A DNA stretch of 64,000 nucleotides from an uncultured bacterium (GCA_963819815.1 CAWFXL010000001.1:800001-864000), one strand, 5' to 3'. Counted from the stretch's first letter, positions 5,692 to 24,224 are shown. Made by a program: numbers and translations. The notes: a model not told the origin generated them from the letters alone.

Positions 5692-5800
5692 ATCCTGTCT
5701 TAAAAATGTATCGGCACAGTGATTATGCACGTAGCATAGTATCTGTGCCGATGCTCATAAGAGCACCACGCACTTGTACCTAAGGGAAAGGATTTTACCT

Positions 5801-6241
5801 ATGGCCGGCGTCAATACCACAGCAACTCATAAATTTGTTATTGTGCTCAATGAAAAGTCCCCTATTGGGAAGTTACTGAGCGCAACTGGGCAAATTGCGA
5901 TGTCACTCTATACTGAGGCAAGCCATGAACAACGTACTGCTATGAGCTTTGTACCCTTCATAGGTACAGCCAATGATAGCCTGATTAGCCTATCAACATG
6001 CTCATTCGTGGTTCTTGCAGGTACCGGCAATCAGCTCCAGACTCTCTATACTACAGCCTACAAGCAAGGCTTGCTAACAGCTATCTTCACCAGTACCATG
6101 TCCTACAGTGGTATTGAAGAGGACCTCATCAAAAAGACGGCAACGACTCCGCTCGAGCACGTAGAACCCTACGGAGTGGGACTGTTTGGACAGGTGGAAG
6201 AGCTGGCACCTTTGACGAAGAAATTTTCAGTGTTCAAATAA
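5801..6241 (+). CDS. DUF2000 / PTH2-like fold protein
   Basis: KFVIVLN..GK...ATGQ start and YGVGLFG...LTKKFS end; ATG at 5801 preceded by GGAAAGGA. Confidence 0.7.
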   Translation: MAGVNTTATHKFVIVLNEKSPIGKLLSATGQIAMSLYTEASHEQRTAMSFVPFIGTANDSLISLSTCSFVVLAGTGNQLQTLYTTAYKQGLLTAIFTSTMSYSGIEEDLIKKTATTPLEHVEPYGVGLFGQVEELAPLTKKFSVFK

Positions 6242-6295: not shown

Positions 6296-6745
6296 CTAAA
6301 GAACGCCCAATCTCTTGAGCTCATTACGCACATGGGAAAAATCGTATGCATGAATGCCAATAATCCCCACTTCTTGTGCCGCAACGATATTCATCTCTTG
6401 GTCATCAATAAAGACTGAGTCGCGAGGTTCAAGGTGGAACCGTGCAAGTAAGTACTGAAATATCGCAAGACTGGGCTTCTTAGCTAAAGCGGTGCTTGGT
6501 GTCACAATACCTTTAAAAGCACCCATAATATCGGGGTATTCTTGTTGGAGAATCTCCATATAAGGGATATGCATATTTGTGCAGATGTAGAGCGTATGAC
6601 CTTGTGTTTCTGCACTAACCATACACTCTTTAAGAACTTCAATGCCCTCCTTGCAAGGAACAAAGAGCTTACCCTGGGTACTGTCCTGAGTACCATGGTC
6701 AAAGAGTACTCCAGTAACATCAAAAATTATATTTTTACGCTTCAT
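6296..6745 (-). CDS. HAD-family phosphatase
   Basis: FDVTGVL motif I, KP motif III, FIDD motif IV. Confidence 0.85.
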   Translation of the reverse strand: MKRKNIIFDVTGVLFDHGTQDSTQGKLFVPCKEGIEVLKECMVSAETQGHTLYICTNMHIPYMEILQQEYPDIMGAFKGIVTPSTALAKKPSLAIFQYLLARFHLEPRDSVFIDDQEMNIVAAQEVGIIGIHAYDFSHVRNELKRLGVL

Positions 6746-7256: not shown

Positions 7257-7715
7257 TTATTCTTCTTCATGGTCTCTCTCTTCATATCGAATGTCGAGAC
7301 CCCGAGGCAATTGCTCAATAACGGGAAGTACTGCACGTAGCATAGCATTAAAAAGAGGTATTTTAGTAAGATATTCTTGATATAAAGCATGCTCTTGTAG
7401 GTGTTCTGAACGCCGGAAAAGGATAACCGCGCGTTGGGCCTCCATAAATTCTTCAACAAGGTACGGGGTTACCAGCTTTTCTTGCGCAAGTTCATAGAGA
7501 ACGTGGGCAGCTTGATCTTCTTCGGGAGCTTTTTCAGCACTAAAGTACGCATGGTAGACCTCTTTGAGGAGCTCTTCAGTGATCACCATGCACTCTATGA
7601 ACTCAACAACCGGTTCTGCTCCAGCTTGAAATGGGGAAGAAAGCTTATCTTCTAACCCCTGTAGAGAATCCTGTAACTCAGCAATAATGTTCTGATACGA
7701 TTCTTTTTCATTCAT
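7257..7715 (-). CDS. HEPN/HI0074-like helical protein, degenerate (A-type)
   Basis: Size and helix pattern shared with the upstream array; ends with an SD-ATG overlap like the other A genes. Confidence 0.5.
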   Translation of the reverse strand: MNEKESYQNIIAELQDSLQGLEDKLSSPFQAGAEPVVEFIECMVITEELLKEVYHAYFSAEKAPEEDQAAHVLYELAQEKLVTPYLVEEFMEAQRAVILFRRSEHLQEHALYQEYLTKIPLFNAMLRAVLPVIEQLPRGLDIRYEERDHEEE

Positions 7716-7839
7716 ACTTCGTCCTTTGCATCGACCGACACTCTTTGTGTACCCGACTTCAAACGGAGCTTCGAAGCTCTCTCAAAATCCTTTGCCAACT
7801 TACACTAGTGAGATAGCACATGCATAGTATAAGCGAGCT

Positions 7840-8349
7840 CTAGTGCTGCTCAATTAAGGTGAGCATTTCATGCATCGTTTCGTAGTAGATACAAATCTTC
7901 TTACAACTCTCCTTGAGAAACTCCTGCTCAAGATACGAAACTCCAGGCCATCGAGCGGTCTCTAGGAAAAGTACAAACTTTTTCATATCGAGAAGGACAT
8001 CAACCTGCTGCTGAGTGATTCTCTGGTCTGACTGTAACTCACGTAGCTGCAAAGCCCTCACCTCCCATACCCATGCTGATTGGTCAACTTCAGGATACAG
8101 ACTATCTAAATATTCTGGAAGAATAATCCCATCAAATATCCAGTACGACTCTAAAAAATAGGATATACAGGCAACTTCTTCATCATACGTTAAGTCGGAC
8201 GACTTTTTAACAAGGTCGTCCAATGCGCTAAAATTTTCATTAAAGGTATGAAGGTAGTGTCTATTTGATTGTCTTCGTTGAAGATAGAAATATAAGATGA
8301 TGCCACCTAAGATAACTCCGTAGATAAGTAGTTTCACAATAAGATCCAT
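7840..8349 (-). CDS. Membrane-anchored HEPN/HI0074-like protein
   Basis: N-terminal TM helix, then F..L...ACISYF..SY, IT....LLDM and I..YY..M pattern. Confidence 0.5.
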   Translation of the reverse strand: MDLIVKLLIYGVILGGIILYFYLQRRQSNRHYLHTFNENFSALDDLVKKSSDLTYDEEVACISYFLESYWIFDGIILPEYLDSLYPEVDQSAWVWEVRALQLRELQSDQRITQQQVDVLLDMKKFVLFLETARWPGVSYLEQEFLKESCKKICIYYETMHEMLTLIEQH

Positions 8350-8380
8350 ATCTAACTCCTACAGGTAACTACGAAATTTC

Positions 8381-8815
8381 TTAAAGAGCATGCTTACACA
8401 TAGTAGAATCGACGACTTTTTTAAGGAGCTGGTACAATGGTTCAGCACAAAGTTCAATAATCTTCTCTTCAGAATCAACGTCAACGTGACAAACTCGAGA
8501 TGCCATAGTAATTGCTGTAAGTCTGAGAAATAGCTCCTCATCTTCCCCGTCAAGAACACCTTTCTTTACAAAGTACTCAGCTATCTGCTCAGGATCCATG
8601 TTAGTTTGCTCTTCTTCAGGTAGCCCAGTAATCTCGCAAAGATAGGTAAAAAGAGCCATAAAACCTACGTTAAATCGCCTCATAAGAGCTTGATTCCTAA
8701 TAAATTTTGGCACTTCAGGTGCATCAAGGCTCATAAATTCACCGAATAGCTCTACACTATAAGCAAGATCTGCATGGAGATTTGAAGCTGTTTTCTTTTG
8801 ATTAGAATAGTTCAT
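8381..8815 (-). CDS. HEPN/HI0074-like protein, B-type copy 3
   Basis: ADL..SVELFG, FIRNQALMRRF, YFVKKG shared with 9466..9915. Confidence 0.6.
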   Translation of the reverse strand: MNYSNQKKTASNLHADLAYSVELFGEFMSLDAPEVPKFIRNQALMRRFNVGFMALFTYLCEITGLPEEEQTNMDPEQIAEYFVKKGVLDGEDEELFLRLTAITMASRVCHVDVDSEEKIIELCAEPLYQLLKKVVDSTMCKHAL

Positions 8816-9326
8816 GTTCAGACTCCTCCGTCACTACCGATAATCTTTGAGAAAGCATCCCCGAAAAATTTGTCAGTATATGATAATAGCGAGGCAACTT
8901 CTTGCAATGGTCATCAAATACCTCGAGCTGTTCAGGCATCTCCCACCAACCTTTATCTAGAGATAAAAACTGCGCAGCCCCAATAAACTCAATAATATCA
9001 ACATATTCTTTGTCAGTAAGCAGTCCCTCGTTGTATAGGGCAAAGAGTACTATACTAATAGCCCGGTCTTGTTCCGTTTCCTCTTCATGGTGGTGCCCCT
9101 CTTCTTCCCCAGATGGAAGCATAGGATCATACATCATTTCAAGAAGGTGGGAAAAGGTATAAAAACACCTATTCAAAACTTCAAGTCGAGCCTCAAGGAT
9201 CATGCGTTCAATGAGAGGATCTTTTGGTGACCGTGGCACAGAAGATTCGAACTGCTCTTGAAGGAGGCTTAACCGAGCATTCAGCTCTTGAAAGACATCA
9301 ATGTCTACTTTATTGAGTAATGTCAT
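8802..9326 (-). CDS. HEPN/HI0074-like protein, A-type copy 3
   Basis: ILEAR, D[KR]xW, LPRYYH..FSGMLSQRL..ESEH shared with 9902..10399. Confidence 0.6.
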   Translation of the reverse strand: MTLLNKVDIDVFQELNARLSLLQEQFESSVPRSPKDPLIERMILEARLEVLNRCFYTFSHLLEMMYDPMLPSGEEEGHHHEEETEQDRAISIVLFALYNEGLLTDKEYVDIIEFIGAAQFLSLDKGWWEMPEQLEVFDDHCKKLPRYYHILTNFSGMLSQRLSVVTEESEHELF

Positions 9327-9465
9327 GCTCGTACCCTTTCAACTGCATCCTGGTTTCAGACGAGGTTTGCTAACCAGAACGATTATGTAAACTTCACTAT
9401 ACACGCACTACAATGTACACGATTCTCAAAAAAAACCCAGAACTGTGGCTCCCAAGGATCTGACT

Positions 9466-9915
9466 TTAGAGAGGAGAATGGGAACTACCCAAATCAACAA
9501 CTTTCTTAAGAAATGCATACACCCGCTGAACGTTTATCATAATCTTCTCTTCATCAGGATATTTACCATGAGATGACCATCGAATCGCCATATACATACT
9601 TGCAAGCATGACATACGATTCTTTGTCGCTCTCTTCAAATAAGCCCTTCTTAATAAAATAGTCAGCAAACTCTTCAGGCTGCTTTTGTACAGACCCATCC
9701 TGTTGTACGAAATCATCAGGCATCGATGACGCCTCACGCAGATAGGCAAAAAGAATAACGAAGCTTAAGCTCAGGCGACGCATACATGCTTGATTACGTA
9801 TAAAACTTGGTATATCAGATGGCTCATGATGCAAAAAAGTACCAAAGAGTTCAACCGTCTGCGTAAGATCTGCAATCACTGAAGATGATGCTTTTTCTTT
9901 ATCATGTGCGTGCAT
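9466..9915 (-). CDS. HEPN/HI0074-like protein, B-type copy 2
   Basis: Clear paralog of 8381..8815. Confidence 0.6.
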   Translation of the reverse strand: MHAHDKEKASSSVIADLTQTVELFGTFLHHEPSDIPSFIRNQACMRRLSLSFVILFAYLREASSMPDDFVQQDGSVQKQPEEFADYFIKKGLFEESDKESYVMLASMYMAIRWSSHGKYPDEEKIMINVQRVYAFLKKVVDLGSSHSPL

Positions 9916-10399
9916 GTTCAGACTCCTTGCTAACTACTAATCGTTGAGTAAGCATCCCCGAGAAAGTACTGAGACTATGATAGTAGCGAGATAACCTATT
10001 ACTGCGATCATCAAATATCTTATGTTTTTCAGAACTATTCAGCCAACATCTATCAGCAAACAGAAGCATCCCCGACTCAAAGAGCTCAACAAGAGCATCT
10101 ACTTCTTTTGGCGATAACATTTTCTCCCGGTACATCCAACCGATTAGTTCACCAAGAGCATTCTCGGGATTACTTCCCTCTTTCTTACTCAGATCAGAGC
10201 CGGTATACATAGATAGCAGAAGTTCGCGCAGCGTTGACTGACACTGCCAAAACGCATGAATCCGCGCCTCTAAAATTATGTTTCGGGTAACTGGATTCTT
10301 CGAAGCACGTGGAGCTAACGGTCCAAAGTGCTCTTGAAGACGTGCTAACTGATAATTAAAGTCTTCAAAGAGGCGCATATCAATTTTAAAGATGGCCAT
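9902..10399 (-). CDS. HEPN/HI0074-like protein, A-type copy 2
   Basis: Clear paralog of 8802..9326. Confidence 0.6.
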   Translation of the reverse strand: MAIFKIDMRLFEDFNYQLARLQEHFGPLAPRASKNPVTRNIILEARIHAFWQCQSTLRELLLSMYTGSDLSKKEGSNPENALGELIGWMYREKMLSPKEVDALVELFESGMLLFADRCWLNSSEKHKIFDDRSNRLSRYYHSLSTFSGMLTQRLVVSKESEHART

Positions 10400-10411
10400 G
10401 GCGTATCCTTA

Positions 10412-10864
10412 TTAGAGGGCTGCTTCGAGTCCTGCCCTGGTAACTGGCATAATCGTTTGGAACCCAATAAACTTTTCCACAAAATCACACATACGAGGAA
10501 TATCTTTTAACAGATCATCATTTGAGCCATCAAAACCTTGGTCATAGTAGCTCAAACTTGCATAGATCATACTCATCTGAATCACCATCCGCTCATCATC
10601 AACAGTAAGCACATTGCATCTGCGACATCGGTTGATAATATTTTCCATGCCGAGCGACTCTTTTTCAGGGCTCAAACGTGATATCAAATAATTAAGAAAA
10701 GCAAAATACAGAACACAGTACCGACGTGCAACTGCAAAACGGTATACTTTAGTTCCGCCGTAGAGTCCGGTTGTCTCCTGCTTAAATAAAGAGCGTAATT
10801 TTAAGAGTGAGCTTTGCGCTTGTAATACCTGAAATTCATAAGAATCGTTAATGACCTTCGTCAT
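10412..10864 (-). CDS. HEPN/HI0074-like protein, B-type copy 1
   Basis: YRFAVARRY...FLNYL; DDERMVIQM...SYYD...IP.M pattern of nucleotidyltransferase substrate-binding proteins. Confidence 0.6.
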   Translation of the reverse strand: MTKVINDSYEFQVLQAQSSLLKLRSLFKQETTGLYGGTKVYRFAVARRYCVLYFAFLNYLISRLSPEKESLGMENIINRCRRCNVLTVDDERMVIQMSMIYASLSYYDQGFDGSNDDLLKDIPRMCDFVEKFIGFQTIMPVTRAGLEAAL

Positions 10865-11339
10865 TTTTCTCCTCGTAATCTAGTAGGGTACACTGAGAAC
10901 TTACTTCATGTAGGAGACTACTCATGTTTCTATAATGTAAGGATATTTCCTGGATACCTCCATCAAATATACGGCGGTCTTCGTCAGACTCTAACCAGTT
11001 TCTATCAAGCGTTAAAAATTCTGCTAACTCAAGTTGGTTCAACAAGCTATGGGCCTGCTCATCATCAATAATATCGAGCATACATAACGTAATCACACCG
11101 GTTTCAATATCCCTGGGCATATCATCCTCAGCATTCTGAGTATGGATATCACCTATCATATTTCTCAACACATCGGACGTACGAACAAATGAAAATATTT
11201 GGGCATCTCGGACGAGCGCCCTATAGATGGGATCCTTCTGGAGTACATTAACTGAAAGCACATCATTCAATTCAAATAAAGACTTGCACAAGTCTTCAAT
11301 AACATCACCATGAACAACCACTGCATCTTCTCCAAACAC
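10848..11339 (-). CDS. HEPN/HI0074-like protein, A-type copy 1 (probable start GTG ~11321)
   Basis: RDAQIFSFVRTSDVL resembles HI0074 RDxxIQRFExxxE; GGAG 8 nt before the GTG. Confidence 0.6.
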   Translation of the reverse strand: MFGEDAVVVHGDVIEDLCKSLFELNDVLSVNVLQKDPIYRALVRDAQIFSFVRTSDVLRNMIGDIHTQNAEDDMPRDIETGVITLCMLDIIDDEQAHSLLNQLELAEFLTLDRNWLESDEDRRIFDGGIQEISLHYRNMSSLLHEVSSQCTLLDYEEKNDEGH

Positions 11340-11343
11340 TATG

Positions 11344-11376
11344 AAAAGACCCCAGCCTTACATAGCTGAGGTCCTT
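11344..11376 (-). terminator. Intrinsic terminator after 5S rRNA
   Basis: GACCTCAGC-loop-GCTGGGGTC followed by only TTTT. Confidence 0.7.
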
Positions 11377-11386
11377 CTAAGTTTAA

Positions 11387-11502
11387 CCCTGGCAGTACCT
11401 ACTTTTCCAGGCCGTCACCAGCCAAGTATCATCGGCGCTGTAGACTTAACTTCCGTATTCGGAATGGGAACGGGTGTTTCCCTACAGCTATACCCACCAG
11501 GA
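11387..11502 (-). rRNA. rrf: 5S rRNA
   Basis: Reverse complement contains CCCGTTCCCATTCCGAATACGGAAGTTAAG; terminal helix CCTGGTG/TGCCAGG. Confidence 0.95.
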
Positions 11503-11612
11503 AATTTTCTATGATCATATGTCAAAAGTTTATCTTGCGGATGAAATATTTGTAGAACATGTATATACTTTAATTACTTACATCTCTATAAGGTATGTCT
11601 AATAATATTAAA

Positions 11613-14637
<3,025 letters not shown>

Positions 14638-14791
14638 AAATTTAGCTAGTTACCCATATTAGCTTAAGTACTTAATTTACAAATATTTCAAAGAACACAA
14701 GAAATTTTTTATCACTACAATAATTTCATATAATACTACGAAAATTTTATCAAAATACTTACTAAGAATACATTCTAAAATCAGCTATTAT

Positions 14792-14867
14792 TGGTGGAGA
14801 TGAGCGGATTCGAACCGCTGACCTTCCGCGTGCAAAACGGACGCTCTACCAACTGAGCTACACCCCC
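14792..14867 (-). tRNA. tRNA-Ala(UGC)
   Basis: GGGGGTG...TT TGC AC...TTCGAAT...CATCTCCACCA with G3:U70. Confidence 0.97.
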
Positions 14868-14925
14868 TATAATTTCATCAGAATAAACTCTATAGCCTAC
14901 AGTCAACCAATCATACAAATTTTAT

Positions 14926-15002
14926 TGGTGGGCCTAAGTCGACTCGAACGACTGACCTCCCCGTTATCAGCGGGGTGCTCTAACCACCTGAGCTATAGGC
15001 CC
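14926..15002 (-). tRNA. tRNA-Ile(GAU)
   Basis: GGGCCTA...CT GAT AA...TAGGCCCACCA cloverleaf. Confidence 0.97.
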
Positions 15003-15096
15003 ATGAATCTGAAGCCTACCAGCTTCTATATAGAACTCCATTTAATACACACCTTATATAGAACAAGCTATAAATGCTGTTCAGATTATCTCCCTC

Positions 15097-16646
<1,550 letters not shown>

Positions 16647-17280: not shown

Positions 17281-19125
17281 TTACTTGAGTAAATCCTGGA
17301 ATCGACCGGTATTAATTTGGGCCTCGCAATAGAGATCTTCATATAAACGATCAAAGATATAAGCACCAAGACGTAATCCTAAAACTACTTTCTTTCGTTG
17401 CTCTGGATCGTCCATACATGGCTCAATGATTTTAAAGAACTCTTCGGCATGGATCTTATCAATGTCCGCATGAAGATTATAGTGCACTAAATCATCTTTC
17501 TTTACCCAACCGCGTCTAACTACCATTTCTGCAAGTAACGCGGAAATATCAGCAAATGCATATTCAATAATTCCATCACAGGCGATCGCAACAATTGGAT
17601 CTTCATGGGAGCAGGTGCCCATCAAGGTAGAGTTGAACATTGTTACCGATGATGCTGGTAACAACTTTTGCATATACTCATTCGTTACCCCAATAGTACT
17701 TAAAAACTTTTTGAAGGTGTTTGAATGGTATGCTTCTTTATTGAAATCACCATGTTCTTCCACGATATTGTGAATAATATCAATTCTAGACTCATGCAAT
17801 GGCAAGCGGGCTACCAAAGCAGCCATGGGTCGAGAAAAATAATCAACCGCATAGAAAAACTGCGCTTGAGCAGATTTAAATGTTTCCTTATCCATAGTTG
17901 ATAAATCTTTAAAGAATGAACCCTCAATAACTGGAATTTCTTGCAATGTAGCATCCGCAAGTTCTTTGACTCGTGGAGCTAAAGGAGCTTTAGGCTTACA
18001 TCCGAGGAAAAAGTTTCGATAAAAGAAGCTTCTATCAGTATCTGAAAATTCTTGTGATGCCTTTAGATCCCACGTAAACATTGATCCAATCTTTGGTATA
18101 TCAATATTTGAATTCAGCTGACGAATAATAATAACGCCACCCGGCTTTAATGCACGGTAGGCAAGCTGCAATGTTTTTTCCGCTTCCTTAGGCGTTAGCC
18201 AATCGAGGATATTTGATACATGAATTACTTCATACTGTTCAGCTTTTGCACCTTCTAAAAAGTTATTCATCAATCCTTGATAATAGGCAATGGGAGGAAG
18301 TGGTCGAATCTGTGACGCCGAAAGCCATGGGAACATAACATCCCCGTGAAAATGGCCCAACAACAAATGAGCTAACCAGGGTGATGAGGATGCTAAATGG
18401 TGCGAAACGTACCGGCGAATTCTTTGAGCAAAGTGGCGAGAAAAGTCCTGAACCCTATTTGCCGTCGCTTTTTCTCCAAATAATTTTACCAAATTATCTT
18501 GAGACATAATCTTATCAAGTCCTGTATCTAGTGCCGATCCTAAGGGAGATTGGGGGGCAAGCATTTTCACCTGATCATCAATAGTAGTGGCGGTAAAAAG
18601 AGCTTCTAGTTCTTTTTTATAGGGAGCAAGTTCATTACGCAAAGCCTCAAAAACCTTTTCATAACGGCCTTCATTATCAAATCCATTGTGCGCAATTTGT
18701 GCCATATCTCCAAAAATTATTGGATTAATATCAAGAGCTTGTAAGTAACCTTGAGTAATAGTTGCACGTTCGGCTGCAGGCAAAGGAAGATACCCCAGAA
18801 TTTCTAATCTTTTTTTCGGAGGAAGAAAAAGTAATTGTATCTTTAATTTTGATAGTGCCAACTGTGCTGGATTTGGATCAACCAGCGTTAAATCCTTAAG
18901 AGGTGCTTGGGCAGCAAGCAATGCGGCGGTGCAACCACCTGATGCCACCATAGCCATAGAAACCGTTTGTTCAGGGAAATATCGTTTTATTATAGCTAGA
19001 TCTTGTACAGAGTCTTCCCGGACAATAGAAAATGCTATAGGTTGTTTACAGGCCTGTTCAGCATAGTTTGCATATACAAAGTTACCTAACAAACAGGGTA
19101 GCGCTAGTGTAATTATTCTTTTCAT
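17281..19125 (-). CDS. DUF3419/BtaA-like SAM-dependent transferase fused to a heme-oxygenase-like (PqqC/TenA/CADD-type) diiron domain
   Basis: VASGGCTA, VDPNPAQL, SNILDW in the N-part; EEHG..H, IIE, HADIDKIH in the C-part; signal-like N-terminus. Confidence 0.75.
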   Translation of the reverse strand: MKRIITLALPCLLGNFVYANYAEQACKQPIAFSIVREDSVQDLAIIKRYFPEQTVSMAMVASGGCTAALLAAQAPLKDLTLVDPNPAQLALSKLKIQLLFLPPKKRLEILGYLPLPAAERATITQGYLQALDINPIIFGDMAQIAHNGFDNEGRYEKVFEALRNELAPYKKELEALFTATTIDDQVKMLAPQSPLGSALDTGLDKIMSQDNLVKLFGEKATANRVQDFSRHFAQRIRRYVSHHLASSSPWLAHLLLGHFHGDVMFPWLSASQIRPLPPIAYYQGLMNNFLEGAKAEQYEVIHVSNILDWLTPKEAEKTLQLAYRALKPGGVIIIRQLNSNIDIPKIGSMFTWDLKASQEFSDTDRSFFYRNFFLGCKPKAPLAPRVKELADATLQEIPVIEGSFFKDLSTMDKETFKSAQAQFFYAVDYFSRPMAALVARLPLHESRIDIIHNIVEEHGDFNKEAYHSNTFKKFLSTIGVTNEYMQKLLPASSVTMFNSTLMGTCSHEDPIVAIACDGIIEYAFADISALLAEMVVRRGWVKKDDLVHYNLHADIDKIHAEEFFKIIEPCMDDPEQRKKVVLGLRLGAYIFDRLYEDLYCEAQINTGRFQDLLK

Positions 19126-20582: not shown

Positions 20583-21347
20583 ATGGAATACAGATTTATC
20601 AAGCATTTAACGGAGCAGGGGGTGCGTCTCTTCACGACAGAACAGGCACGAGTCTATGCTAAACAGGTAGGTTTGGATGAGAGTACTATTACACCTCGAT
20701 TGTATCGGTTACACAAAAAGGGGCTTATAGAGCGGGTTATGAAGGGTCTTTACTGTCTAGCACCTGAATTTTTGGGAGGAATACCTCTTCATGAATACGA
20801 AATAGCCACAGCACTGACAACGCCAAGCTGCATAGCCTATTTCTCGGCGTACAGTTATCACAAGCTTACCGATCAAATAAGCTCAACTATCTATATCCTT
20901 GCACCTGATACTCCCAATACACCTCATTCCTATAACAGCTACAAGATAAAAGGTATTACCTACAAAATTCTTCGGACCCAAGAAGAGCACTTTTTTGGAT
21001 ATGAAAAACAATGGGTGAACCAAGTACTTATACCTATCACCGATCGAGAGCGCACTCTGATCGATGGTCTCATAAGACCTGATTATTGTGGTGGGTTTAG
21101 AGAAGTACTGGATGCCTACTCGCAAGCTATTAATACACTTGATATACAAAAAATAATCTCGTATGCTCAAAGAATAAACAACGCCACCTGTAAGAGGCTC
21201 GGATGGATACTGAGCACTCTCGAAATTGAAGACCGTCTTCTTACTCCCTTACTTACAAGATCCTCACCAAGTTATTCAAAACTCAATCCATCTGGCCCTC
21301 AAAAGGGGATCTGGAACAAAAAATGGCATATCTTGGAGAATCTATGA
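20583..21347 (+). CDS. abiEi: AbiEi type IV TA antitoxin / transcriptional regulator
   Basis: wHTH with GLIERVMKGLY, SAYSYHKLTDQI, TDRERTLID, KRLGW. Confidence 0.88.
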   Translation: MEYRFIKHLTEQGVRLFTTEQARVYAKQVGLDESTITPRLYRLHKKGLIERVMKGLYCLAPEFLGGIPLHEYEIATALTTPSCIAYFSAYSYHKLTDQISSTIYILAPDTPNTPHSYNSYKIKGITYKILRTQEEHFFGYEKQWVNQVLIPITDRERTLIDGLIRPDYCGGFREVLDAYSQAINTLDIQKIISYAQRINNATCKRLGWILSTLEIEDRLLTPLLTRSSPSYSKLNPSGPQKGIWNKKWHILENL

Positions 21348-22258
21348 CACGCCTTTATGATCGATTACAAGCACTTCGCAGAGAAAAGAATGTAAGCTGG
21401 GAACTTCTTGAGCAAGACTACCTATTATCCTGGATGTTAGCCGGCATTGCTGCAACGCCTGAACTCAAAAAACTTTTAGTCTTTAAAGGAGGAACAGCTC
21501 TTAAGAAGATGTATTTCGGAGACTATAGGTTTTCTCAAGATCTTGATTTCTCTGTCTTAGAAGTCCTACCTGAGGATATCGCTCTTGAAAACCTCATACA
21601 AGAAGCTTGCCATAATGCACAGATATTACAGGGCAAACATGGATACCCATTGAAAATTAGTAGTCAGTGGTACACCGAAAAAAAACCGCATCCTGAAGGA
21701 CAAAAAGCCCTGAGCATCTTAGCACAGTTTCCCTGGCACAGAGACTCCCAAACACGCATCATGATTGAAATAACGATGCAAGAGACTATTATATTACCAC
21801 CTGTAGAAAGGATCATCCTTCATCATGGATATAGTGAAGTACTCACCGGATCCCTCACTGTCTATACCTTAGAAGAGGTAATCGCTGAAAAATGTAGGAC
21901 GATCTTGCAGTATGCGATGAAGCTTCATGAACGAGGATGGGCTCGTTCTCGAGCGCGTGATTATTATGACTTATGGAGCATCCTAACAATGTACAAACAG
22001 CATTTGGATCTTTCAATAATCCCCCATATGGTTATAAAAAAATGTCACTATAAGGATATTGTCTTCTCAGGACCATCAGATCTTTTTACCCCAGTTCTAC
22101 TCGATGATCTCGAAACCGCCTGGGAGCATTGGCTAGGTCCCATCGTGCCCTTTCTTCCCGAGAAAAATAAAATGCTTGGGGAGCTGCGACAGGAGCTTGA
22201 TGTAATCTGGAGCAGATTTTCGCAGTCCAGTAAAGAAGAGAGCCAACAGCAATTGTAA
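21344..22258 (+). CDS. abiEii: AbiEii nucleotidyltransferase toxin
   Basis: LEQDY, FKGGTALKK, RFSQDLDF, AEK, RARDYYDL; ATGA overlap with abiEi. Confidence 0.92.
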   Translation: MTRLYDRLQALRREKNVSWELLEQDYLLSWMLAGIAATPELKKLLVFKGGTALKKMYFGDYRFSQDLDFSVLEVLPEDIALENLIQEACHNAQILQGKHGYPLKISSQWYTEKKPHPEGQKALSILAQFPWHRDSQTRIMIEITMQETIILPPVERIILHHGYSEVLTGSLTVYTLEEVIAEKCRTILQYAMKLHERGWARSRARDYYDLWSILTMYKQHLDLSIIPHMVIKKCHYKDIVFSGPSDLFTPVLLDDLETAWEHWLGPIVPFLPEKNKMLGELRQELDVIWSRFSQSSKEESQQQL

Positions 22259-22535: not shown

Positions 22536-24224
22536 TCATTGGCAAGGTGTATCAAATCCATCTATTTTGAGATATTTTTCTAAATGCTTGTAATAGAACG
22601 CACAATCTTCCCCAAAAAAAGCTTCATCTCCAAATACATCGTTAGGCTTCCTTACTGGATATTGTTTGCTTTCTTGAGCCACCCTATCCATAAGACTTGA
22701 ACAGACAATTGGTATGACCTCATTGCCGAGAAATGGCCGAATGTAATTCTCAAGTTTTGAAATGAGTAAAGAGCGCTGTATTTCATCTTTTACCATACAA
22801 CTAATGCTTTGCTCCCACAAGGGAAGAAGTTTGCCGCCGTTACGTTTGTAGAGATAGATCACTTCAAGAGCTTTTTTTAAGGCCTTTGTCCATTGAGGAG
22901 CAACAACTCGGCCTTGCTTATTTCTTTGCTCAGCAGCTGCAAATAAGAGTACCTCATAGATACAATAAGCTGGCAGATTAAGGTGCATACCTAAGATATG
23001 CACAAGTTGTGCAACCATTTGAAGAGCAATTCTCGCCTCGCGCTTGGTCGGCGTGTATCTTCGTGTACATGCCTGGAGAAGCATTTCATAATAGTGGTGC
23101 TTATCAAATTCCTTATATCTAGGCCATATGTGGACAGGAGAATTTACCGGAAAGATACCCATATTAAAAGAATTGGACACAGTGGATCCAGCTCGTTCTG
23201 GAAAACTTCCATCCATCGAAGCCCCTGATTCAAGAAGTCGCTGCCCTGCACGAAGTGATCCCTTGCTACAAGCGACCAGCCAGGGGGTTAATCCGTGCCA
23301 ATTTCTTTGCTCTTTCGGTGCGCCTCCCTCAAGTAAGAGTTGTACCATGCAAGCCCTATCAAGCTCTACGGCAAGGTGAAGTGGCTGCATAGAATCTTTA
23401 TCAACAGAATCAACGGGTGCTCCCGCACGTAAAAGAGCTCTGAAAAGATTTTCATTATCCTCTTTGATTGCAAAACGTAAGAGTCTATCAAGGTGCTTTT
23501 TTTTTCTGAGAATATCTACATCGGTACTCGTACTATCCTCTGAATCTGCACAAACTAACGTGAGATGTTGGGCAATCGAACGCAATGAATCTGCAGATAG
23601 AAAAACCAGATGCGCATGAGTAATCGTTTCTGCTCCAGCAGCTCGTAATTCTTGCTGTAGAACATCATCATCAGATGAAAAGCAACTGAGTACAATGTTC
23701 AGCGAAAGCTGCACCTCTAATCGTCCTAGAATTCGTTGATATGACTGATTGGTAAAGTAAGTATCTATCTGAGCAGTGTCATAAATTTTTTGAATACACT
23801 TGGTAAGTTGAAAAAGGCTCCTGATATTTCTCTGAAAGAACGGTACCATAAGATAGTGCTTTTCCAGATTTGGATGTAGTGCTCGATACACCACATCTGG
23901 ATTTTTCAAGTGAAATGTTTGGTTAGCCTGCAGAATATTGTTTTGAAGTTCGTCAAGAAATAAATATAGGCATTCAATATGCCCATGTATTGCAGCCCAT
24001 TCAAAGGGTGAGTAACCAAACTGATCATGCACTGAAAGTAACGCGCCCCTTTTAAGAAGCTCTCTTGCAAGAGAAGCATCACCCACTTTTGCTGCACCGA
24101 TCAGTCGCTGATTCAGCTCATCTTGTAGTTCTTTTGTTTGTGCAGCCTCAGCCTGTACCACCATGGCACAAAGGCTACCTGAGATAAGGAGCAGGCCAAT
24201 CAGCCCCAGTAAGCGTTCTTTCAT
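22536..24224 (-). CDS. Secreted ankyrin-repeat protein, array copy 4
   Basis: Signal peptide, PLHLA/WAAIHGH ankyrin repeats, conserved C-terminal domain. Confidence 0.9.
   Translation of the reverse strand: MKERLLGLIGLLLISGSLCAMVVQAEAAQTKELQDELNQRLIGAAKVGDASLARELLKRGALLSVHDQFGYSPFEWAAIHGHIECLYLFLDELQNNILQANQTFHLKNPDVVYRALHPNLEKHYLMVPFFQRNIRSLFQLTKCIQKIYDTAQIDTYFTNQSYQRILGRLEVQLSLNIVLSCFSSDDDVLQQELRAAGAETITHAHLVFLSADSLRSIAQHLTLVCADSEDSTSTDVDILRKKKHLDRLLRFAIKEDNENLFRALLRAGAPVDSVDKDSMQPLHLAVELDRACMVQLLLEGGAPKEQRNWHGLTPWLVACSKGSLRAGQRLLESGASMDGSFPERAGSTVSNSFNMGIFPVNSPVHIWPRYKEFDKHHYYEMLLQACTRRYTPTKREARIALQMVAQLVHILGMHLNLPAYCIYEVLLFAAAEQRNKQGRVVAPQWTKALKKALEVIYLYKRNGGKLLPLWEQSISCMVKDEIQRSLLISKLENYIRPFLGNEVIPIVCSSLMDRVAQESKQYPVRKPNDVFGDEAFFGEDCAFYYKHLEKYLKIDGFDTPCQ

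Follow-up and report, generated by a model that had tools for sequence, protein, structure and literature searches.

The window analyzed in this work, a stretch of 64,000 nucleotides (nt) from an uncultured bacterium (GCA_963819815.1, CAWFXL010000001.1:800001-864000), carries a minus-strand array of eight consecutive open reading frames (ORFs) directly downstream of a complete rRNA operon (11387-16646) on the same strand. According to the ORF listing, positions 7257-11339 are packed with these ORFs, which encode proteins of 144-174 amino acids (aa). HEPN domains are familiar mainly from RNA-cutting toxins and defense effectors, and a sequence-only reading of this DNA had proposed that the array represents divergent HEPN/HI0074-like proteins. 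Our results lead us to regard these genes, with considerable confidence, as an MNT-less, catalytically degenerate, two-subunit derivative of an HI0074-type HEPN toxin. In the list below, the labels A1, B1, A2, B2, A3, B3, C7, and D8 are our own and follow the order of transcription. The genome under study is referred to as G000, and L-numbers denote the loci and contigs compared.

10848-11339, minus strand: A1, putative A-type degenerate HEPN-M protein, 163 aa, DRNW, isoelectric point (pI) 4.25
10412-10864, minus strand: B1, putative B-type degenerate HEPN-M protein, 150 aa, A..RR, motif Tyr retained in SYYD
9902-10399, minus strand: A2, A-type, 165 aa, D116-R117-C118-W119
9466-9915, minus strand: B2, B-type, 149 aa, R46-R47, predicted partner of A2
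8802-9326, minus strand: A3, A-type, 174 aa, DKGW, recent A2 paralog (36% identity)
8381-8815, minus strand: B3, B-type, 144 aa, recent B2 paralog (39% identity)
7840-8349, minus strand: C7, 169 aa, ARW and IYY motifs, C-terminal half weakly A-like, family membership tentative
7257-7715, minus strand: D8, 152 aa, divergent A-like member without a B partner, pI 4.53

Compared with the 98%-identical relative G027, the ratio of nonsynonymous to synonymous differences (pN/pS) is 0.07-0.29 across all eight genes (pooled, 0.14), and that of the neighboring HAD gene is 0.08. Purifying selection in all eight indicates that these are real coding genes, as the sequence-only reading had taken them to be. 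The listed start of A1 is a GTG, and an in-frame GTG at 11321 with GGAG ahead of it provides an alternative. Each A gene overlaps the following B gene (A1/B1 by 17 nt, A2/B2 and A3/B3 by 14 nt), and the remaining junctions in the array are spacers of 12 to 139 nt. The products are mostly acidic: five of the eight have a pI within 4.25-4.7 (A3, 4.54; B3, 4.71), and the family medians are 4.78 for A and 5.44 for B.

The A-type proteins A1, A2, and A3 all carry the D[RK]xW motif ascribed to them earlier (DRNW, DRCW, and DKGW). The motif R.[QF]A..RR that had been given for the B-types is found exactly in B2 and B3; B1 (YRFAVARR) fits only the shorter A..RR. In BLASTP comparisons, paralogy is clear for A2/A3 (E-value 1e-32), B2/B3 (E-value 7e-33), and A1/A2 (24% identity, E-value 1e-9), and weak for B1/B3 (E-value 0.003). 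The last two genes were assigned with A and B profiles built without them. D8 matches the A profile at 25.6 bits (hhalign 62%, E-value 7.5e-5, 117 columns). The match of C7 to the same profile is weak and confined to its C-terminal half (13.3 bits; hhalign 21%, E-value 0.001, 63 columns). In these profile comparisons the B profile matches neither protein, such that both appear to be A-like rather than a fourth A-B pair. The order of the array therefore reads A-B, A-B, A-B, A', A'', with moderate support for D8 and weak support for C7. This agrees with the earlier description of three alternating A-B sets followed by two divergent members, except that C7 can be assigned only weakly. In the ESM Atlas, the named clusters nearest to D8 are HEPN-type at 0.84-0.85, which serves as a lead only, and the neighbors of C7 (best score, 0.86) are uninformative. 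C7 is also the only one of the eight with a hydrophobic, membrane-anchor-like segment in its first ~25 residues.

The array had been presented as an undescribed family, and database searches are consistent with this. None of the eight proteins matched Pfam or NCBIfam at E-values up to 1, and PADLOC and PHROGs at E-values up to 0.1 returned only two chance-level rows (QatB, 0.018; phrog_4338, 0.043). In a search of the literature outside subscription journals, we found nothing on the A/B family, on HEPN proteins of Dependentiae, or on HEPN being connected with YbaK.

Fold, homology, and catalytic residues

With the family alignments as input, AlphaFold2 produced all-helical models of A2 (pLDDT 87.4, pTM 0.81) and B2 (pLDDT 87.2, pTM 0.81), both of which form the four-to-five-helix up-down bundle expected of HEPN proteins. 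We compared these models with 48,161 chains using VIA-align (wide). For A2, the top matches were 8xdj_A (Z 13.4, 129 of 130 residues aligned) and 1jog_A, which is HI0074 itself (Z 12.8), followed by 1wwp (12.3), 7ae2 (11.7), 5yep (11.3), and 1ylm (10.3), and the next chain scored 8.4. For B2, the same six chains ranked first at Z 12.5-14.3; below them came 6nlt, an aminoglycoside nucleotidyltransferase, with a Z of 9.8, and no unrelated chain exceeded 9.4. All six are HEPN-M-type, the alignments cover 117-138 residues of targets that are 119-143 residues long, and a gap of ~2 to 3 Z units separates them from the chains that follow. Foldseek against the PDB also placed HEPN toxins, HI0074, 1wwp, and YutE first for A2 and the same proteins first for B2, at E-values of 0.01-0.1 and TM-scores (by target length) of up to 0.72 and 0.75, respectively. 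Las1, a eukaryotic pre-rRNA HEPN nuclease, scored only Z 7.1-8.5 amid unrelated rows, which indicates a fold-level resemblance.

As helical bundles may reach a Z of ~13 from their arrangement alone, we put the weight on the recurrence of the same six top hits, the full-length coverage of these hits, and evidence from sequence profiles. When compared by hhalign with 28 canonical NTase_sub_bind (PF08780) proteins of Dependentiae, the B family (49 sequences) gave 96.5% (E-value 8e-10, 132 columns) and the A family gave 94.0% (E-value 1.5e-7, 134 columns), with the family motifs IQRFE, DRN, and I..YY aligned in register. These runs supersede those against a single canonical sequence, which had given low values (31% and 6%). 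A compared with B gave 88% (E-value 3e-6). Among 1.84 billion representatives, the B-family profile retrieved 55 at E-values up to 1e-3. One of these 55 remote hits, P0067 (E-value 2.6e-4), matches PF08780 and is a true Pfam NTase_sub_bind protein (49.4 bits). The B profile also finds canonical PF08780 genes in other genomes at E-values of 1e-8 to 7e-6, and the two kinds of match coincide in position, for example in G010, G108, G153, and G166. Homology to NTase_sub_bind members is thus demonstrable for both A and B, even though none of the eight window proteins reaches the PF08780 gathering score in a search at E-values up to 1. In sequence-profile searches of the PDB, the first B profile reached 1wwp_A below threshold (E-value 0.065), and the A profile and a wider B profile found nothing related.

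Taken together, the profiles and models support the array proteins as an offshoot of the HI0074/NTase_sub_bind (HEPN-M) family, in line with the initial assignment. That their likeness to HEPN proteins is a generic helical-bundle resemblance of an unrelated orphan family is very improbable: the weak Foldseek E-values, the Z that bundles reach by arrangement, and the lack of a direct Pfam match would fit such a view, but six near full-length HEPN-M-type matches shared by both models, the independent profile scores with motifs in register, and the retrieval of canonical genes by the B profile speak against it.

Canonical members of this family carry I-Q-R-F-E in alpha-2 and R-N-x-x-x-H-x-Y further on, of which A and B retain parts only. 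The segments singled out in the sequence-only reading (IYASLSYY, AIRWSSH, ASRVCH, and LTLDRNW) do align at the position of the canonical RNxxxHxY. Residues were counted at columns aligned by profile, with 28 canonical, 19 A-family, and 49 B-family sequences:

Alpha-2 Gln (Q43): canonical 27/28; A 2/19; B 1/49 (Arg in 42)
Alpha-2 Arg (R44): canonical 23/28; A 0/19 (mostly Ala); B 38/49
Alpha-2 Phe (F45): canonical 28/28; A 16/19; B 27/49
Alpha-2 Glu (E46): canonical 26/28; A 0/19; B 1/49
Motif Asp (D100): canonical 17/28; A 16/19; B varied
Motif Arg (R101): canonical 27/28; A 13/19 as R or K; B 0/49
Motif His (H106): canonical 27/28; A 1/19; B 4/49
Motif Tyr (Y108): canonical 27/28; A 0/19; B 30/49 (present in B1; absent in B2 and B3)

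The canonical motif Asn is present in 27 of the 28 sequences, and as a control, R-x4-H-x-Y was found in 30 of 31 canonical Dependentiae proteins. The loss of residues is complementary in the two families: the motif Arg persists in A, the alpha-2 Arg and often the Tyr persist in B, and the His persists in neither. In the HEPN superfamily, the endoRNase motif Rx4-6H typically, although not obligatorily, lies where the last long helix or loop starts; strings of this form elsewhere in the array proteins are due to chance and are not conserved. For the best structural match (8xdj), the motif Arg and His are described as the presumed metal-independent RNase residues and the Tyr as the AMP acceptor, with RNase activity dropping when Q44 or E47 was mutated (PMC11586414). 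Neither subunit has the full catalytic set, and in neither A nor B are the residues of Rx4HxY retained jointly with the alpha-2 Q/E pair. As far as can be judged from sequence, an A-B dimer is therefore very unlikely to be an RNase of either known kind, and its regulation by AMPylation is improbable. The earlier claim of non-catalytic proteins is in accord with these counts.

A-B pairing, distribution, and position behind the rRNA operon

The A2 protein matched 8 proteins among 60 candidates in a collection of 5.8 billion proteins, and B2 matched 5 among 17 candidates. Within 261 Dependentiae genomes, in which relatives of the array were sought, A2 matches were found in eight, G000 included. 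All eight belong to one family (7 of its 40 other members, against none of the 220 genomes from the remaining twenty families), and strong matches to the B profile (E-value 2.4e-17 or better) occur in exactly the same eight genomes. Five of these genomes have one pair each, G032 has three pairs and one A-like gene, and G000 and G027 have three pairs and two further genes. In every one of the eight, a B gene comes directly after an A gene. The trees of A and B agree for the expanded arrays: pairs 2 and 3 of G000 are sisters in both (support, 99/98 in A and 95/94 in B), and pair 1 of G000 groups with pair 1 of G032 (93/94 in A and 91/92 in B), with many other branches being long or without support. 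Because the two trees agree, the A-B pair was the unit of duplication.

A heterodimer of A and B had been suggested, and we modeled one cognate pair, A2-B2. The complex prediction gave an ipSAE of 0.82 in all three runs, compared with 0.01 for the best of three controls; the runs have at least 89% of contacts in common, and the partner pLDDT is at least 80. Of 157 solved complexes, 116 attain the ipSAE mark used, as do 2 of 215 mismatched pairs, a calibration that applies only roughly to A2-B2 because own alignments were used for it. The predicted interface is formed by residues 9-59 and 115-119 of A and 16-54 and 114-119 of B, namely, alpha-1, alpha-2, and the degenerate motif loops. The positions with the highest conservation in the two families fall within it (residues 44-49 and 115-119 in A; 45-47 and 114-119 in B), and the interface helices carry the conserved A45 to F50 in A and R46 and R47 in B. 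This geometry corresponds to the arrangement described for HEPN dimers in PMC11586414. Together with the constant adjacency, the gene overlaps, and the congruent trees, the controlled model suggests that A and B most likely assemble as a HEPN-type heterodimer.

Canonical members of the parent family are common in the phylum. PF08780 was found in 166 of the 261 Dependentiae genomes, often in several copies, and we observed that these bacteria are unusually rich in the MNT/HI0074 type of toxin-antitoxin system. G000 itself has a canonical pair at C1:513 kb, ~290 kb off the array (L026 1196-1489 and 1477-1881), in which a 97-aa MNT gene precedes a gene for a 134-aa HEPN protein with IQRFEF and RNLTSHTY (97.4 bits to PF08780). 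The PF01909 matches in G000 are located at C1:513 kb and 1,194 kb, both outside the window. At the array itself, the absence of an MNT partner noted earlier was confirmed: no nucleotidyltransferase gene, including one of the minimal (GSx10DxD) kind, lies in or beside it, as every ORF between the 5S rRNA and the HAD hydrolase genes that flank the array is A- or B-like. Only three of the eight pair-bearing genomes (G000, G024, and G034) have a canonical PF08780 match, and three of the five without one are 91-96% complete.

The features that flank the array are as follows:

15098-16646, minus strand: 16S rRNA, first gene of the 16S-tRNA-tRNA-23S-5S operon
11613-14635, minus strand: 23S rRNA, separated from the 16S rRNA by the two tRNAs
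11387-11501, minus strand: 5S rRNA, last gene of the operon
11344-11377, minus strand: terminator-like hairpin of 14 pairs and a T run, between the 5S rRNA and the start of A1
6296-6745, minus strand: short HAD-family hydrolase, 511 nt downstream of D8, context rather than a demonstrated part of the system

The A1 ORF begins at 11339, right after the hairpin that reaches 11344, which leaves no room for a promoter ahead of it. An A gene starts just after the 5S rRNA on the same strand in five of the eight genomes (G000, G027, G024, G030, and G034), and a strong GC-rich hairpin with a T run lies between the two in all five. As A begins a few bases past the terminator, we infer that the array is transcribed by read-through from the rRNA operon (rrn). 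G029, G032, and G013 have no rRNA in their 16-kb loci. The HAD gene follows the array in four of the eight genomes (G000, G027, G024, and G030).

A second neighbor is a gene for a YbaK-like tRNA-editing domain (tRNA_edit, PF04073), located behind the final B/A gene of the array in G030 and G032. Furthermore, the B-family representative P0061 (289 aa) consists of a B domain fused in frame to a tRNA_edit domain. On its metagenome contig, L083, an A-type gene (hhalign 95.5%) is located upstream and overlaps the start of the fusion by 4 nt. A total of three loci thus have tRNA_edit next to or fused with an A-B pair. An orthologous tRNA_edit gene is present in 16 of the 41 genomes of the family and adjoins A-B in two only. 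We considered whether tRNA_edit is a usual neighbor of rrn and rejected this, as none of the 14 other ortholog loci has rRNA within ~1.5 kb; the adjacency to A-B therefore does not simply follow from rrn synteny. The orthologs at those other loci were also found to have no A- or B-like ORF beside them. The association may be described as specific but rare. We also looked for a remnant of tRNA_edit in the 511 nt that separate D8 from the HAD gene; tblastn found nothing there, and the best matches (E-values 0.77-9.6) were elsewhere in the window.

Several known systems resemble the array in part. Like HI0074/NTase_sub_bind proteins, A and B are predicted to have the helical HEPN fold (Z 12.6-12.8 to 1jog), and their homology is seen by profile. 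The alpha-2 I-Q-R-F-E corresponds to A-R-I-x-A-F in A and A-x-x-R-R-F in B, D-R-N corresponds to D-[RK]-x in A, the last-helix I-x-x-Y-Y is retained in A, and the predicted A-B dimer would use the same helices and bring the motif loops together. Unlike that family, A and B have no Pfam match, no joint Arg/His/Tyr, and no adjacent MNT; they have diverged into two subunits, which are predicted to form a heterodimer in place of a homodimer; and their genes are chromosomal, placed behind an rRNA operon, and tandemly amplified. Both models match the 8xdj protein best (Z 13.4 for A2 and 14.3 for B2), but it is an RNase AMPylated on the motif Tyr (PMC11586414), whereas A and B have lost the Q and E and keep the Tyr in part of B only. 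The C-terminal domain of kanamycin/aminoglycoside nucleotidyltransferase (6nlt; Z 7.9 for A2 and 9.8 for B2) is likewise HEPN-like and without RNase function and shapes the substrate site; that domain is fused to a nucleotidyltransferase, and the array has none fused or adjacent.

HEPN domains without the motif, such as MtlR, are predicted to be non-catalytic RNA binders in PMC3710099. According to a table there, 83% of HEPN-M proteins have a conserved motif, and inactive members are thus to be expected. MtlR and the HEPN dyad of Swt1 (PMC3710099) share with A and B a HEPN scaffold that lacks Rx4-6H and for which binding rather than cutting has been proposed. They differ in being single proteins or fused dyads, as opposed to a two-gene pair from the MNT-associated branch, and no sequence relationship of A or B to MtlR or Swt1 was seen in our analysis. 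Inactive HEPN domains are therefore already in print, and what is new here is a putative non-catalytic, heterodimeric HEPN-M variant, a new branch of a known superfamily.

Possible function and competing explanations

The account that we favor is that of a lineage-specific, non-catalytic, heterodimeric HEPN-M variant with a translation-linked binding role, and we hold it as a whole with moderate confidence. According to this account, an ancestral HEPN gene would have been duplicated into subfamilies A and B in one family of Candidatus Dependentiae. The two would be encoded, A then B, as a translationally coupled pair, and their products would assemble into a HEPN-type heterodimer with contacts via alpha-1, alpha-2, and the loop that holds RNxxxHxY in the toxins. 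In G000, the A-B unit was copied to three pairs along with two extra A-like genes, and read-through of the rRNA-operon terminator would provide their expression. The dimer may then bind the end of a tRNA or rRNA, or else a protein acting on such an end. This last step draws on the rrn position in five of the eight genomes and the adjacency or fusion to tRNA_edit in three loci, and it is favored because the parent family acts on tRNA and rRNA. Taken by itself, the proposal that A-B is a module with a binding rather than an enzymatic function, linked to the translation apparatus, is tentative.

Several observations weigh against this account. The heterodimer comes from a model, and solved HEPN homodimers may let the predictor pass such a pair by likeness. 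Conserved polar residues persist (D, R/K, W, and E in A; RR and Y in B), and an alternative active site may be built on them. Three of the eight genomes lack the rrn position, which may in any case be synteny inherited within one bacterial family. The tRNA_edit link is seen in two of the eight genomes and one fusion, all of one lineage; the ortholog is located ~28 kb from the pair in G029 and ~12 kb from it in G034, and with the same query it was not found in G000. The acidity of most members speaks against simple RNA binding, and it is conflict or effector genes, more often than housekeeping factors, that expand into paralog arrays.

An alternative is that A and B act as decoys, in which they form dead mixed dimers with canonical HEPN toxins or occupy the RNA targets of those toxins, such that HI0074-type RNases, own or foreign, are kept off the rRNA and tRNA of the cell. 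The abundance of canonical NTase_sub_bind genes in the phylum and the intact MNT-HEPN pair in G000 would supply such toxins, the dimerization helices are retained, and most members are acidic like many immunity proteins. In addition, the best structural match is reported to cut 23S and 16S rRNA (PMC11586414), and the array is located behind an rRNA operon. However, the idea is weakened because a canonical gene is present in only three of the eight pair-bearing genomes, and canonical toxins are already served by their own MNT antidotes. The strict pairing, the co-duplication, and the confident A-B interface further indicate that the partners are each other rather than a third HEPN protein. We consider a decoy role unlikely.

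A narrower form of the translation-linked account, in which a toxin fold was domesticated as a translation-quality factor, also seems doubtful. Here the dead A-B dimer would be made in step with rRNA through leaky termination and would bind the tRNA acceptor end or a precursor rRNA end. As an adaptor, it would thereby provide RNA recognition for a free-standing YbaK-like aminoacyl-tRNA deacylase, and the B-tRNA_edit fusion of L083 would be a single-chain form of the complex.

It is rather improbable that the pair is a cryptic enzyme, with a composite site (Arg from A; Arg-Arg and Tyr from B) that would have RNase or another nucleotide-directed activity, or that B is a non-catalytic toxin neutralized by A. 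The residues retained by A and B do complement each other and map to the predicted interface or its vicinity, the overlapping two-gene layout resembles toxin-antitoxin modules, and motif-less HEPN proteins were reported as toxic in a genome-scale screen, as cited in PMC3710099. Yet the His is found in only 1 of 19 A and 4 of 49 B sequences, the Q/E pair is essentially gone, and no PADLOC model was matched. Moreover, the genes are chromosomal and have been retained vertically behind rrn across three genera under purifying selection, rather than being patchy or mobile.

To a similar extent, we doubt that these are host-directed effectors, namely, fast-diverging helical proteins that are delivered to a eukaryotic host and reuse the HEPN scaffold for protein binding. 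Consistent with such a role, ankyrin and WD40 genes abound in the window, the paralog arrays are lineage-specific (three pairs and two further genes in G000 and G027; three pairs and one in G032), the C-terminal tails are acidic, and divergence is faster than that of the HAD protein (identity between G000 and G030 of 32% for A1 and 30% for B1 vs. 54% for HAD). Against it, there are no signal peptides, and a hydrophobic N-terminus occurs in C7 alone and is membrane-anchor-like; obligate A-B coupling and reading from an rRNA operon would also be unusual for effectors.

If the non-catalytic heterodimer account is correct, the array would provide a clear natural case in which an MNT-associated toxin branch lost both its antidote and its catalytic residues and split into two complementary subunits, which a reduced intracellular bacterium maintains under purifying selection as an obligate pair. 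The two proteins are small and soluble and would form a tractable system for asking what a dead HEPN dimer binds, and the three cognate pairs in one genome bear on how heterodimer specificity evolves after duplication. The locus also bears on whether genes right behind an rRNA terminator are tuned by read-through. A functional tRNA-editing link would tie toxin-derived scaffolds to translation quality control; otherwise, A and B would be one more lineage-specific inactive HEPN group.

Other genes near the array

Within the rRNA operons of relatives, group I introns were found in the 23S rRNA, with one in G027 and two in G030 (L015 4099-4371; L019 10460-10951). The 23S rRNA of the window (11613-14635) has no intron above threshold, even though the array proteins are ~98% identical to those of G027. 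Just upstream of the operon, a 614-aa protein (17281-19125, minus strand) is an unusual fusion with DUF3419, methyltransferase-like, and iron-containing redox enzyme (Haem_oxygenas_2) regions. On the other side, just past the HAD gene, a DUF2000 protein (PF09391, E-value 2e-19) is encoded on the opposite strand (5774-6241, plus strand).

A separate type IV toxin-antitoxin pair lies at 20583-22258 (plus strand), approximately 10 kb away from the array, and consists of an AbiEi antitoxin-like gene (PF13338) followed by a gene for an AbiEii nucleotidyltransferase toxin (PF08843, E-value 3e-31). A similar AbiEii gene is located near the array in G024 (L017 9836-10621). The G032 array, which does not adjoin rRNA, is bordered by mobile elements; serine resolvase/MerR-type and TnpB-like (Cas12f1-like TNB) genes lie downstream of the array and tRNA_edit (L016 10186-12186). 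Ankyrin-repeat/WD40 genes recur near the array, both in the window (22536-24224, minus strand) and in relatives (L017 8992-9753; L019 4342-5424; L020 5240-6397 and 9203-10276), which fits a eukaryotic-host-associated lifestyle.

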